From NCBI RefSeq assembly GCF_054482525.1, contig NZ_CM137006.1: 64,000 nt of DNA; one strand, 5' to 3'. Positions within the stretch are counted from its first letter, which is position 1. Each line of letters opens with the position of its first letter. Below are positions 23,329 through 35,300 of this stretch, piece after piece. A program made the position numbers.

Positions 23329-26300
23329 AAACGACATTCGTGCCGGATGCACTGGAGCAGGCAGTATGGGCCGTCGTCCATCTGGCACCATCCATCACAG
23401 TAATAAAGGTTCTCAGTATGTATCGCTGGCCTACATGCAGCGACTTAAGGAAGCCGGATTACTGGTATCAACAGGGAGTCCTGGCGACTCGTATGACAAC
23501 GCGATGGAGGAGAGCATCAATGGTCTTTACAAAACGGAGGTAATACACCGTAAGAGCTGGAAAAAACCGGACAGAAGTGAAACTGGCCACACTAACGTGG
23601 GTGGACTGGTATAACAATCGACGATTACTGGAAAGGCTGGGCCATATTCCTCCGACAGAAACAGAAAAAGCTTATTATGCCTCCATCGGAAACAATGATC
23701 TGGCAGCCTGAGTTCACAGATAAAATACTCTCCAGGAAAACCGGGATGGTTCACCGGAGTGTTAAAGTGTGGCTTAAAATTATGCAGTTGCCGCCTGGCG
23801 GTCAAGACTGTCGCTACAGGATAAATCGCTCCGGTGAAACACAACTGCGCAAATCACCATACTGTGCATACGTATTACCGTGAAGGAGATCGGTGAGTTA
23901 CGGGGTTATTGGGTGATCTCCTTCCATGAAAATACGCAGAGCACTTAAATCGCTGCTGGCGCGCACTAAAAACGTGTCAACCTGGTTCCATTAGCGTAAC
24001 ATCAAAGCGAGCACTTAAGAAGCAGAAGAGCAACCTACAGGTTAACCCGAACCATATTAAATTCATAATCTTTTAACTGCTCAGACCTGATCACCAGAAA
24101 TCTGCCATTACCTGACTTAAATGATTTTGATAAAACAAGTGTGGTATCATATCTGGCTAAAACATAATACCACCCGTCATTATAATTCATCATTTCATAT
24201 TCTTTCTTGAATTGCGGCTTGTAAAAGCCAACAGAAAATGAAAAAACCCAGAAATATATGACAAAGCCGACAAGACATATTTCAGAAATATGTTTCTTTA
24301 CAAAGATACTCTCTGAAAAACATGATGCTGAAACACGGTGGCCACAGGTTCTTATAAGAAAAACAAGAATAAGGGATACCGCTACTGATAAGGTAAGAAG
24401 TTTTAATGCCAGATGATTCTTTAGCACAGAGAACTCAATCACCACCGGAACAAACAATAAGAATGAGGCAAGAAAAAGTCTGAAAAAGCTCAATTCATGC
24501 ATGCTTGCTTTGTTTTTTATTCCAAGAAAGAAAAGTACTCCCGCGCCCCATGAGAGAAACAGGATGACCATTATAGTAATTGCATGAAACAGGCTTCTTG
24601 CAACATCGTCAATACCTGCACTGACAACCCACCATGGGAAACCATAATAAAAAGAGACACCCCACCCGTAAAAATATGCACTTCCCCATCCGAGACATCC
24701 CATATAAGCCACAAATAAGGAAGAATTTTTGAGCAACGCGTTGCTGTTCATTTTTACCCCTGTAAAACTGGAATAAGTAACAGAATAGCATTGACATTGT
24801 CAAGATGAACAGCATGCATTGTAACAGTCTGCAGCTTATGTTCTCCGTGGATAATTATTCTTATTTCATGGTGATTTTTGTTATATTTTAAAATGCATAT
24901 CTCACCATTTAGTTTTTTATATCACAAAAACATAGTGATGCAATCATACACACCTGCCTCTATCGTACAGAGAAAACGGGCAATTATTTGTATTATTCCT
25001 TCATAACGACTTCAGTATACAGGATGACCGCAACCACGCTCCTTCTCCTGCCCGGGCGAAGTGCCTGGTTCAGACAATGACATTAACTGGCTGAAATTTT
25101 CGACGCGGTACAGGTCTCCCTGCTTTGAAAGGTGCCTGGCGCTGCAATTTTTTATCATTTGTTTTTGTATCCGGCAAAACACGTCTGCAAGAATCATTAT
25201 TCTCTTGCCTGAAGCTATCCGGCATCCTCAGGCATTTCACGCTTTATGAGCTGACATCATCAAGATGCGCCAGTAATTTTTTATTAATGACTTCAAACAG
25301 TTCCTGTTCATCATGGGTCAGATAATCCCAGATTTCTTTCAGATACATGCTTTGTGCAAGAGTGAGCCTCTGAATAAAAAACATACCTTCAGATGTCAGA
25401 CTGATTTTTTTAGCACGGCGATCCTCCCTGCTATCCATCCTTTTTACATACCCGGCTTTTTCTAAAAAATCTGTAATGCGGGTAATATTAGTTCTGGTAA
25501 ACTGCAGTTTCTGGCTTATCTCTGAAGGTGACAGACAATGACTCTCCGCTGTGAATAATGTGGTGAGAACCATGTACACTGAGTGATTTATTCCATACGC
25601 CCCCAGAAATTCAGATATATTATCCTGCATCCTTTTATTTGCGCGAATACAGAGTTGCATCAACAAATGTTCCTGAAAGGGATATGCGGGGTCTTTGTTT
25701 TTTTGGTGTCTGATTATTTTTTCTAATGTGTCTGTGTTATTCATTTCATTATTCTCCATATTACTGAAACACACTGTCTGTGTACAAGCGCGCATCAGTC
25801 ATCCGGTAAACTTCGACTTTCCACTACAATTTATTCCTGCCTGATTTCTGTATAACTGAGATATCCCGGCACAGCGGACAGATAAATTTCCTCAGATAAA
25901 AGAACATAAATGCTGGCTGCTGGCAAGTCTGTGAAAAAGGATTATCCATACTGCTCAGTAATCGCGGATAATTCATCAGCTCCCACACGCCTGTAGAGCC
26001 ATCCCTGACAGCCCTGGACATTCATGTCTCTGGCAATACGGAACAACGCTTCATTTTCAACACCTTCAAGTATTACGCCCCGGTTATGACAGGCAACAGT
26101 GTCTGCCACAGCATGGAGAAGCGGCATTGCACTCCTGTTTTTCAGGGCATAATGAAAAAACTCATGACTTATTTTTACCCGTTCAAACATCCCGGACAGT
26201 CCCCACATTAAGCCTGCATTTCCTGAGCCGAAATCATCCAGCCAGAGGGTGAAACGTTCTGACAAAAAACGTAACAGGGGGTCATCACCGGGTTTTAACG

Positions 26301-32300: not shown

Positions 32301-35300
32301 TAAATCACACGGGTGGCACCCAGAGCAACCCCGGCATAGCTCTGCGGAATATAAAAAAAGACTAAAAATGATGCCAGAACGGCCCATATACGCATGTGCT
32401 TCATCATGTTATTAACAGCCTTAATTAAATGGCGTTATATCTGCCAGTTACAGATAGGTCAGAGAAAACCATACCTGTCCATTTGCCTTTCCCCCGGTGA
32501 CGGGATAATGTGTGGCCTTATACCTCGCCTGCATATGCAGTTTCATATCTCCGCGGGTAAGATGCACCCAGTTCTCCGGAGGCTGATTAAGTTTTACCAG
32601 CTCTCCGCTTTCATTAAATAAAGCGATAGCGATTCCGTCTGAAGCATCATTCTCCTCATCCACCGACAGCAACTCCGGCTCGTGAATATCTGACACGCCA
32701 TAAAAGGAAATCCCCACCCGCTGACTGACGACAGTGCTGCAGTCCTGAAGGTGAATATCAAAGCCCACAGAGTCCCCATACTCACCGGCGGCGTGAAATC
32801 GATTGCTGCTGAGTTGCCCCATATCCACAGTCATCTGCCTGTCTGACAGGGCAAGACTGCATGCTTCAGCAATTATTTTTCCCTGGAAGCGCATGTTTCC
32901 TCCCGGAAGCATGACATGCCAGTGGTTTCCGGCCAGTGCAGCGGGAGACAGCAAAAATAACATTATTGCCATTTTCGATATTTTCATTAATCTCACACCC
33001 GCATGGATAAAAACAGCCCTCCCTGGCCGGGTATATATCCGTTACACTGTTCTGATATTACTGGTACTGAACTTTAAAGGTGGCGTCGGCATTGGCAATA
33101 CCAGCAGTGGCCTGTCCGGTTGCATAATAGCGAGCCTGGAACGGAATTTTGTTAGTGCCATCAGTCAATGTATATTCGGATGCTGCATCTGAATTCAATT
33201 CTACAGGCTGACCTTTAGAATCTAAAATTTGGATCCCTACATTTGTTGCAGCACCTGAAGCAGAGTTTTGCAATGCAAGAACATTTGTTTTCCCTGTGAC
33301 AGGGGTCCCCGAAAATATAATTTTTGCACTTTGGGTTGGGCCGGTAGTTAAATCACAGTCATCCAGTTGAATGGTAAAACCAACAGAACCACTAGTTTTT
33401 CCATCACTCCCTAATGTGGCGCTTCGCACTTGGCCAAGCAAAACCGTCTGATCTACTGAGTTCATATTTACAGCACATGCAGCATTAACCACTTCACCCT
33501 TAAAATGAACTGTACCACCATTAACCGTGGTGGCAGCAGACGCATTTGTCGCAACACCCAGGGTCAGGGCTGAAAATACAGCCATGGAGATGAATTTTAA
33601 CTTCATATTTAATTCCTGTTTTTAATTGAACTACGCACACCGTATCTGTCATCACAACAGATACAATCAATATCCCGAACTACGGGAATCTTTTTTTCAG
33701 GAGAACTTCATAAATGCAATGTGAGAAATACACTCAGGCAGCATTTATGACATTATCTCCCGATAATATTTTCCGGATAACCGACAGGAATCTTCTCTAT
33801 AGATAAGATTCCCTGGATGATAAGCTATGGGTTAGTGTTCCTGTCTCCACACCGAATGCTTTAGCAAAAGCAGAGAAGCTGAAAGCATACCTCGTTGATA
33901 ACACCCGTACTCTCATTTGACTACAGGCTTATATTTCTCGCGTATTATGTATTGCCCCGGCGTTTTTTATTGTCCGTATTTTACAGGGAAGCAGCTTCAG
34001 CTATAGCTGATACACTATCAGTATAATAAGGAGCAAGTCTGGCAACGAGGACATTCAACCTGGTAAGGCGCCCAAGCGTTGTACTGAAATATCCATTATT
34101 CATCTGGTATTTCTCGCAGACATCTTTACGGGAATGACCACTGACCAGATAATCCTTCATAGCGAGAATAACTCTGTCACTGTGAATAGAGGAAATACCT
34201 ATCAGTAAAAAAAATTGTTCTTCAGACATGGAGCCGGATGACAGCGCGCTCTCACGTAATTTTAGTAAAAAAGCATCCCCTCCCCGGGTAATAACTTCAT
34301 GCTGTGCCATTCGATACTCCCCACCCCGCCACCTACAGGGCTGCCTTAATATTCATCCCCCATACAGGAGGGCCTGGCTCCTTAAGATATATTTAGTTTT
34401 TTATGTTGTAAACATGTATTTTGACGATCTTTTGATCTGTAAAGCTGTTTATTTTTAGGGTTATATCTTGCAGTGGATTGGTGCCTTAGTGATTAATGCT
34501 GTATAAGAATGAATATTCAGTATAAAAGATCGTTAAAATCGTTTTTTGCAACGTTCCTTACCATTGAAAAAACTATAAAAATAATGTGATAGAAATCCAA
34601 TCGTGAATATGTTTCGCATATTAAGTAAATACACCAAATACAATATAAAAACATGATAGTCACATTTGAATTGCCAAAAACAAGTCAGCCACTTATTATC
34701 CTTTTGCTTATATAGAGAGGATGATGATATGCAGAATGAAATAATGGGTTTTCTGAGCAGACATAATGGAGGGAAAACCGCAGAAATTGCGGAGGCGCTG
34801 GCGGTAACGGATTATCAGGCACGCTATTACCTGTTATTACTGGAAAAAGCAGGTATGGTTCAGCGCTCACCATTAAGACGGGGCATGGCAACATACTGGT
34901 TTCTGAAAGGAGAAAAGCAGGTGGGACAAAACTGTTCTTCCACAACTTAATAGCTTAATCTGTGGGCATGCTTCACTGAAACAGATAAAAGTTATATCAG
35001 AATGAAGATTCAATTTTGCAGCATTCATCACAAAATAGAAATTTAGTATTTTATGTCAGAATACTTCACATGATAATAAAAACCTGTCTGGATTTACTGC
35101 ATGGCCAGACATTACAAAATACAAACGCCATAAACTTCATTCAGCCTTCTTGCTGTCCGGTAACGGAGGCTGTTTTTTCGTTACGCCTTTCCCCGGCAGC
35201 ATCAGTAGCAGTAATTTATAGATTCTACGAACTGAGACTGTCTGTCCGGGGAGAACATACGCATCCCGGCGCAATGCTCCGGTCATTTACAACCTGCTTC

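Follow-up and report, generated by a model that had tools for sequence, protein, structure and literature searches.

Which fimbria is encoded by the S/F1C-type operon on contig NZ_CM137006.1 (RefSeq assembly GCF_054482525.1), and are its genes, down to the two regulators at its distal end, likely to be functional? The question arises from an earlier note on a stretch of 64,000 nucleotides of this contig, in the following called the window, which had described a complete operon at 25244-33606 ending in a sfaY-like EAL gene and a sfaX-like MarR gene. Our analysis indicates an intact chaperone-usher operon, predicted to be phase-variable, that belongs to the S/F1C fimbrial family of extraintestinal pathogenic Escherichia coli, combines F1C adhesins with SfaY and X as regulatory outputs and is of mosaic origin; we put the probability of this reading at roughly 90%. 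By its adhesins the operon is F1C, whereas by its serotype-defining pilin it is neither F1C nor S. The system is of an already known type, and the exact DNA is already present in RefSeq with the correct family annotation. Judged from the alignments, all parts except the pilin are at least 96% identical to characterised proteins.

Adhesins, major pilin and operon backbone

As NCBIfam contains no S/F1C-specific hidden Markov models (only fim, lpf and bcf models match, all of them below their cut-offs), the type of the adhesins and of the pilin was settled by direct comparison with reference operons, using sliding-window nucleotide identity as well as protein comparison. The references were sfaII of UTI89 and IHE3034 and the canonical foc operon which adjoins iroN in UPEC 26-1 (UPEC, uropathogenic Escherichia coli).

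The comparison with SfaS/SfaH versus FocG/FocH, which had been proposed as the way to assign receptor specificity, came out in favour of the F1C type. The gene at the FimG/SfaS position, focG (27947-28450, minus strand), encodes a minor tip subunit of 167 amino acids that is 100% identical to canonical FocG and 59.3% identical to SfaS, the central region being unrelated. The exact sequence carries the name FocG in public sources; the Pfam scan gave no match for this open reading frame (ORF), and the NCBIfam FimG model matches it with 137 bits. The following gene on the minus strand, focH (26986-27996), encodes a FimH-like two-domain tip adhesin of 336 amino acids (Pfam FimH_man-bind and Fimbrial), which is 99.7% identical to canonical FocH (one amino acid change) and 80.7% identical to SfaH. 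Its best match in the PDB is a FimH/F1C-adhesin fusion (E=8.9e-51), and FimH structures also match. The nucleotide identity to sfa is 53-67% across 27400-28400, the lectin domain of H being of the foc type. The adhesin set can thus be classified, by alignment, as F1C and not S, and the SfaS adhesin that distinguishes S fimbriae is absent. F1C fimbriae recognize GalNAc-beta-1,4-Gal on asialo-glycolipids or asialo-GM2 (PMC12442223). Since FocG and FocH belong to F1C, the fimbriae of the operon are predicted to bind this disaccharide of asialo-glycolipids, not sialic acid.

The major pilin (33058-33606, minus strand; 182 amino acids, WP_000768214.1; Pfam Fimbrial) belongs to none of the named types. 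It shares 75.8% of its amino acids with FocA, the pilin that defines the F1C serotype, and 79.7% with SfaA-II, and at the nucleotide level its gene is 76.6-78% identical to sfaA-I, sfaA-II and focA, with sfaA-I at 76.6%. It is neither FocA nor SfaA-I or SfaA-II and represents an unnamed fourth allele of the S/F1C family, for which public sources give generic names only ('fimbrial protein' in RefSeq). At an identity of at least 95% the allele was found in 60 records among 5426 complete genomes, and its carriers were obtained from humans, dogs, mice and a beluga whale. A search of the accessible literature found no description of the allele or of the present recombinant. Operons with the unnamed pilin could be the 'Sfr' or 'Sfx' variants of the older literature, which PMC12442223, the one review found on them, names without giving sequences.

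Outside of the pilin and adhesin cassettes the backbone is 97-100% identical in nucleotide sequence to the reference sfa and foc operons, and the gene order is that of the S/F1C family, C / B-A-D-E-F-G-(S or G)-H-Y-X, including usher and chaperone. On the minus strand, the major pilin gene is followed by sfaD/focI for a FimI-like minor subunit (32448-32987; Pfam Fimbrial, NCBIfam FimI 248 bits), sfaE/focC for the periplasmic chaperone (31712-32407; Pfam PapD_N and PapD_C), sfaF/focD for an outer-membrane usher of 876 amino acids (29012-31642; Pfam Usher E=1.7e-209, PapC_N and PapC_C) and sfaG/focF for a FimF-like minor adaptor subunit (28472-28999; Pfam Fimbrial, NCBIfam FimF 147.6 bits). The mechanical ORFs are slightly longer for the usher (29012-31690), FocH (26986-28002) and SfaD (32448-32996); the shorter spans given here probably reflect the true starts, according to RefSeq annotation of near-identical DNA.

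An ORF listing with Pfam matches for each role established that all minus-strand ORFs of the operon are present and intact, as had been noted. The gene order, the identity as sfa/foc and not pap, and the nature of the two trailing genes were likewise borne out by ORFs, Pfam, RefSeq names and protein comparison. The extent of the operon needs correction, however. The structural genes, Y and X do lie within 25244-33606, whereas the regulator counted among them, sfaB/focB (33981-34310, minus strand), lies outside of this interval, which begins at the major pilin. The divergent sfaC (34666-34950, plus strand) and the switch region are also found beyond it, so that the full operon, comprising the minus-strand genes plus the divergent sfaC, spans 25244-34950.

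Usher, chaperone, SfaG, SfaD and SfaB are 99.4-100% identical in amino acid sequence to the canonical foc proteins and 98-99.5% identical to those of sfaII. The usher differs from the canonical protein by one amino acid, the chaperone is 100% identical, SfaB is identical, and SfaG/FocF and SfaD/FocI reach 99.4% each; SfaC shows four amino acid changes. All product lengths equal those of the canonical foc references without internal stops, none of the genes is called a pseudogene by RefSeq in essentially identical DNA, and no frameshifts were seen in the adhesin or usher genes, the ORFs of which are full-length. Over 10.1 kb (25000-35100) the window matches 11 complete E. coli genomes in full length at 99.4-100% identity, UPEC 26-1 being the best, and the names used by RefSeq in this near-identical DNA are sfaC, S/F1C regulator, 'fimbrial protein', sfaD, SfaE/FocC, sfaF, sfaG, focG, focH, sfaY and papX. 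The foc operons of Nissle 1917, ATCC 25922 and clone D i14 are about 97.8% identical over 10 kb.

The NCBIfam models FimA, FimI, FimC, FimD, FimF and FimG match the structural genes in operon order, and these genes follow the order fimAICDFGH. The structural part of the operon is thus related to fim and its regulation to pap, a combination known from the S/F1C family. The chaperone SfaE/FocC and the usher SfaF/FocD would assemble a rod of the major pilin, the tip of which would consist of SfaG/FocF, FocG and the FimH-like adhesin FocH. Type 1 fimbriae share the homologous structural genes in the same order and, with FocH, the FimH-like two-domain adhesin; they differ in using the fimS invertible element and another receptor and in lacking Y or X genes, whereas regulation in the window is of the Pap type, with PapI and PapB homologues and Dam/Lrp. 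P fimbriae have in common with the operon the architecture of the PapI/PapB/GATC switch, a PapX-type gene at the 3' end and the island slot, while their structural genes are unrelated in order and type and pap has no EAL gene.

Phase switch and the distal genes Y and X

The sfaB/focB product belongs to the PapB family of regulators (Pfam PapB E=6.8e-37; FocB structure 3M8J, E=5.5e-67) and sfaC encodes a local regulator of the PapI family (PapI structure 2HTJ, E=8.8e-42; named sfaC by RefSeq), the likely real start of which is the ATG at 34729. The divergent regulatory region between them (34311-34665) contains GATC sites at 34426-34429 (proximal to sfaB), at 34434 and at 34528-34531 (distal). 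The sites at 34426 and 34528 are 102 bp apart, lie in inverted ACGATCTTTT contexts and are placed between divergent PapI-like and PapB-like genes, which is the arrangement of a Pap-type switch. Both this spacing and the Lrp/Dam/PapI mechanism are established for pap and sfa. By analogy, Lrp and the PapI homologue SfaC would move between the two Dam GATC sites and thereby switch transcription on or off, and the PapB homologue SfaB/FocB would autoregulate; for sfa the phase switch has been described (PMC9602443).

At the distal end of the operon, sfaY (25942-26682, minus strand; Pfam EAL E=3.2e-18), also named pdeY, encodes a stand-alone EAL protein of 246 amino acids and is directly preceded by a GGAGGAG ribosome-binding site. 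Whether its EAL domain is catalytically competent had been left to a check of the active site. Alignment with the active K-12 phosphodiesterases PdeH and PdeL (the latter by its EAL domain) and with the degenerate anti-FlhDC factor YdiV/RflP showed that all catalytic and metal-binding residues are retained: E38 (in 'EML'), N94, E119 and E122 (LEVSE), D149 and D150 (DDFGSG), K170, E206 and E209 (EGVE) and Q226 all have their counterparts in PdeH and PdeL. In YdiV, the first Glu of ExxE is gone, as are both Asp of the DD pair, the Lys and the Glu of EGVE. The protein differs from SfaY of IHE3034 at 8 of 246 positions (96.7% identity), none of them in the motifs. Overproduction of the IHE3034 protein depletes cyclic di-GMP (c-di-GMP) in vivo (PMC9602443), and SfaY acts as a stand-alone phosphodiesterase, PdeY (PMC9602443, PMC6385356, PMC5635171); these studies of sfaY, like those of sfaX, were made on the S-fimbrial system (PMC9602443, PMC6385356). 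SfaY of the window is accordingly best regarded, from its conserved residues, as a catalytically competent stand-alone EAL phosphodiesterase that would lower c-di-GMP.

It could be argued that SfaY is instead a degenerate EAL protein that binds FlhDC in the manner of YdiV/RflP and STM1697 and does not hydrolyse c-di-GMP, since YdiV/CdgR (E about 1e-9) and STM1697 head the list of solved structures that match it and since its partner gene X also targets the flagellar regulon. This is very unlikely, as SfaY keeps every residue that YdiV has lost, just as PdeH and PdeL do, the NCBIfam PdeH model matches it with 70 bits and the 96.7% identical SfaY depletes c-di-GMP (PMC9602443). The ranking of the structures reflects overall sequence distance and not the loss of an active site. 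PdeH has the same catalytic residues as SfaY at only about 21% identity. The YdiV-like reading was rejected on the active-site residues and the literature, leaving the phosphodiesterase as the preferred interpretation, although SfaY may have a second role in binding a protein. Like PdeH and the fimbria-linked EAL proteins MrkJ, FimK and STM0551, SfaY would be an EAL enzyme, stand-alone or encoded in a fimbrial operon, that links fimbriation to c-di-GMP (PMC3487979).

The last gene, X (25244-25795, minus strand; Pfam MarR E=5.5e-12), encodes a MarR-type regulator of the PapX/FocX/SfaX group. Its ORF has 183 codons, and the published form of 166 amino acids would begin at M18, the codon of which lies at 25744. 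It differs from the foc-linked X by three amino acids (98.4% identity) and from SfaX of IHE3034 by seven (96.2%). Among the three changes are A114 in the recognition helix and M120 in the wing, which correspond to the PapX-type A97 and M103, the residues that distinguish PapX from FocX (PMC6246914); because of these residues the gene bears the name papX in RefSeq. PapX and FocX are 96.7% identical and both repress flhD and motility (PMC6246914). With its MarR winged helix and an identity of at least 96% to these repressors, X is probably a PapX/FocX-type repressor of flhDC and motility. The papX and focX genes are transcribed with the operon as well as from a proximal promoter 144 nucleotides upstream of the ATG (PMC6246914). 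By coordinate arithmetic the published start site maps to about 25888, within the Y-X intergenic region (25796-25941, minus strand), which by homology should contain the putative proximal promoter; the published promoter has a 19-bp spacer, beyond the range of our sigma-70 scan. Together, SfaY and X would couple fimbriation to other behaviour of the cell.

The consensus scans of the region were uninformative, with 24 sigma-70 promoter-like sites where 17.4 were expected and 12 terminator-like sites where the expectation was 8.7, the latter not above the shuffle expectation. Between the pilin gene and sfaD, a short GC hairpin with a T-run behind it (33014-33029, minus strand) is a weak candidate for an attenuator.

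The pap slot, mosaic origin and rival readings

A tRNA-Phe gene (14889-14964), followed by an integrase, marks the boundary of a genomic island about 10 kb from the operon. The core flank of the window on the left (1-14840) consists of fxsA-aspA-dcuA-dsbD-yjdC, which we take, from the K-12 map, to be the side of pheU. In UPEC 26-1, BLAST shows an island that is 99.7% identical and collinear from 14841 to at least 47102; this island, like its relative in HR5-1, sits at pheV by speC-yqgA, indicating that the same island uses either tRNA-Phe gene. Homology to the canonical foc and sfa contexts stops at 25228 and at about 35290. The flanks at 24793-25228 and 35305-36770 match pap-operon contexts in more than 1000 genomes instead, and on the X side the homology to pap contexts runs from 24793 up to the sfaY stop codon at about 25945. 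In addition, precisely this slot is filled by a pap operon in the pheV island of HR5-1. The pap-type flanks and the pap operon of HR5-1 show that the S-family operon replaced pap through the shared X end and the PapI/PapB end, and it now occupies the 'pap slot' of a tRNA-Phe island.

A further level of mosaicism is apparent within the operon. E02 has an S-family operon in the same island, the pilin, SfaD, SfaY, X and SfaC of which are identical to those of the window, but with an SfaH-like adhesin and an unnamed 169-residue subunit at the G/S position in place of FocH and FocG. Window and E02 are 100% identical at 23000-27424 and show a single difference (34413) across 32211-36999. Between these segments the window follows canonical foc at all 310 informative sites in 27425-28400 and at all 14 in 29718-31906; the two foc tracts are separated by a short patch in which the sites are mixed and mostly of the E02 type. 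The operon is thus a two-level mosaic, in which tracts from canonical foc at 27425-28400 and 29718-31906 have replaced the original SfaH-like adhesin set.

UPEC 26-1 contains two S/F1C operons that are essentially identical across about 26200-32100 and differ in their major pilins, the canonical foc (at 1.74 Mb) adjoining iroN, and its genome thereby has two X and two SfaY genes. The pattern of the adhesin tracts would fit gene conversion from a resident foc copy. In 3-72 and 82.0311, an operon with the unnamed pilin is located in the iroN/microcin island, with pilin and SfaY identical to those of the window; like that of E02, these operons encode unnamed 169-residue subunits at the G/S position (WP_001560440.1, WP_021522029.1), which in 3-72 stand beside a FocH-like adhesin. 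Evidently the S/F1C family shuffles pilin and adhesin cassettes, as far as can be judged from these operons, and the avian fac cluster is a published case of such shuffling (PMC12442223). The current understanding of the S/F1C system is left unchanged by these findings.

Could the locus nevertheless be a plain representative of one of the two named types? An S-fimbrial operon with the sialic-acid-binding adhesin SfaS would be in keeping with the backbone identity to sfaII of UTI89 and IHE3034, with the architecture and regulators shared with SfaI and SfaII, with the SfaY and SfaX identities of 96.7% and 96.2% and with a pilin slightly nearer to SfaA-II than to FocA; it is nonetheless highly improbable, because the gene at the S position encodes FocG, the lectin domain of H differs from that of SfaH and RefSeq names both genes focG and focH. 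That the operon is simply the canonical foc with its FocA shaft, as in CFT073 and Nissle 1917, can practically be dismissed. It is true that the 97.8% nucleotide identity over 10 kb speaks for it and that the foc operons of CFT073, Nissle 1917 and ATCC 25922 have the same gene order, an identical FocG, FocH, usher, chaperone, FocF, FocI and FocB at 99.4-100%, and SfaY and X downstream. Yet identity falls to 60-72% in the part of the pilin gene for the mature protein (33100-33500), the name FocA is not used for the product by RefSeq, X carries the PapX-type residues, SfaY differs at 6 residues, and the operon lies next to a tRNA-Phe gene between flanks of the pap-island type, while foc adjoins iroN and microcin genes. 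Canonical foc identity was refuted by the pilin comparison. More weight may be given to the idea that the operon is silent and, as a redundant duplicate, makes no contribution, given that related strains also have a canonical foc with identical adhesins; in UPEC 26-1, which has both operons, FocG, FocH, the chaperone and SfaB are identical. We regard this as unlikely, since all 11 genes and the switch are intact and the pilin protein does not vary among some 57 complete genomes and over 1000 contigs; moreover, the usher is disrupted in the relative H12, so that decay would show if it were present here.

The reading as an intact S/F1C-family operon with F1C adhesins and a separate pilin allele has its own weak points. 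Expression, phase variation, receptor binding, phosphodiesterase activity and motility repression are all deduced from near-identity to characterised orthologues. With only 76-80% identity to the named pilins, the serotype of the pilin and its fit with a foc-derived usher and tip are presumptive; compatibility is suggested by the occurrence of the same pilin with several tip sets in intact operons. Finally, two residues are missing from SfaY, namely the Arg four positions behind the EAL motif and the Asp that follows the catalytic Lys; this is not disqualifying, because the active PdeH also lacks both. No sequence feature argues against the identification as an S/F1C-family operon as such.

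Island neighbours, GATC content and consequences for typing

The island is a classical UPEC pathogenicity island with hly-cnf1 cargo: cnf1 (1014 amino acids), hlyD, hlyB and the 3' part of hlyA are encoded on the minus strand at 54049-57093 and 58040-64000, and the window ends within hlyA, the reading frame of which is still open at that point. A second chaperone-usher operon of four genes, the F17-like UclABCD (38620-43576, minus strand), has an adhesin that matches the UclD lectin-domain structure with E=2.9e-132. Between integrase and fimbrial operon are found an intact phosphoethanolamine transferase of the EptA/MCR-family type (18086-19588, minus strand; 500 amino acids), which in HR5-1 is broken by the insertion sequence IS66, and an outer-membrane protein (19770-20510, minus strand). 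A predicted multi-pass membrane protein of 238 amino acids (24035-24751, minus strand) is encoded directly downstream of X and is kept in the pap-carrying version of the island. Rfam gave no matches inside the operon; in its flanks only, two matches exceeded the gathering score, namely the Hfq-binding small RNA isrC (23151-23273, minus strand; 93 bits) amid IS3 remnants and AS-pc02 (35101-35279, plus strand; 63 bits) just past sfaC.

GATC is markedly depleted in the coding DNA of the operon. With expectations from a trinucleotide Markov model, 3 GATC sites stand against 22.4 expected in about 8 kb of S/F1C coding DNA (observed/expected ratio 0.13, P about 4e-7), the stretch from 25424 to 33231 being free of them, while other four-nucleotide palindromes in this coding region are near expectation. 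Low ratios were also obtained for the pap structural genes of HR5-1 (0-0.27), sfaII of UTI89 (0.26), the ucl operon of the window (0.13) and K-12 yeh (0.33), as compared with 0.76 for K-12 fim, which is homologous but not switched by Dam, 0.68-0.88 for K-12 yad, sfm, elf and yra, 0.91 for iroCDEN of UTI89 and 0.84 for the core flank (1-14800). Indeed, GATC is strongly avoided across the island in general (14965 to 64000), and its non-fimbrial part at 16083-20725 contains none against 15.7 expected. It is conceivable, although quite unlikely, that selection keeps Dam/Lrp-switched operons poor in GATC and leaves the two switch sites as the sole targets of Dam, SeqA and MutH; if this were true, the scarcity of GATC would insulate the epigenetic state of the switch. 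A compositional legacy of the donor lineage is more likely, because ucl, K-12 yeh and the non-fimbrial segment are also depleted. A search of the literature on whether GATC is under-represented in operons of the pap type brought up nothing specific.

The practical yield of the analysis is a correct annotation, which is relevant to virulence-gene typing. Of about 250 complete genomes positive for S/F1C, about 60 would be under-called by polymerase chain reaction or BLAST schemes that rely on focA or sfaA. For the present strain we predict fimbriae of F1C and not of S specificity, on a shaft that such typing, or anti-F1C serum, may miss. Where a second foc operon is present, as in UPEC 26-1, the outcome would be the same receptor specificity combined with different major antigens and with two copies each of X and SfaY. 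The locus also provides a clean example of the evolution of fimbrial operons by cassette exchange.

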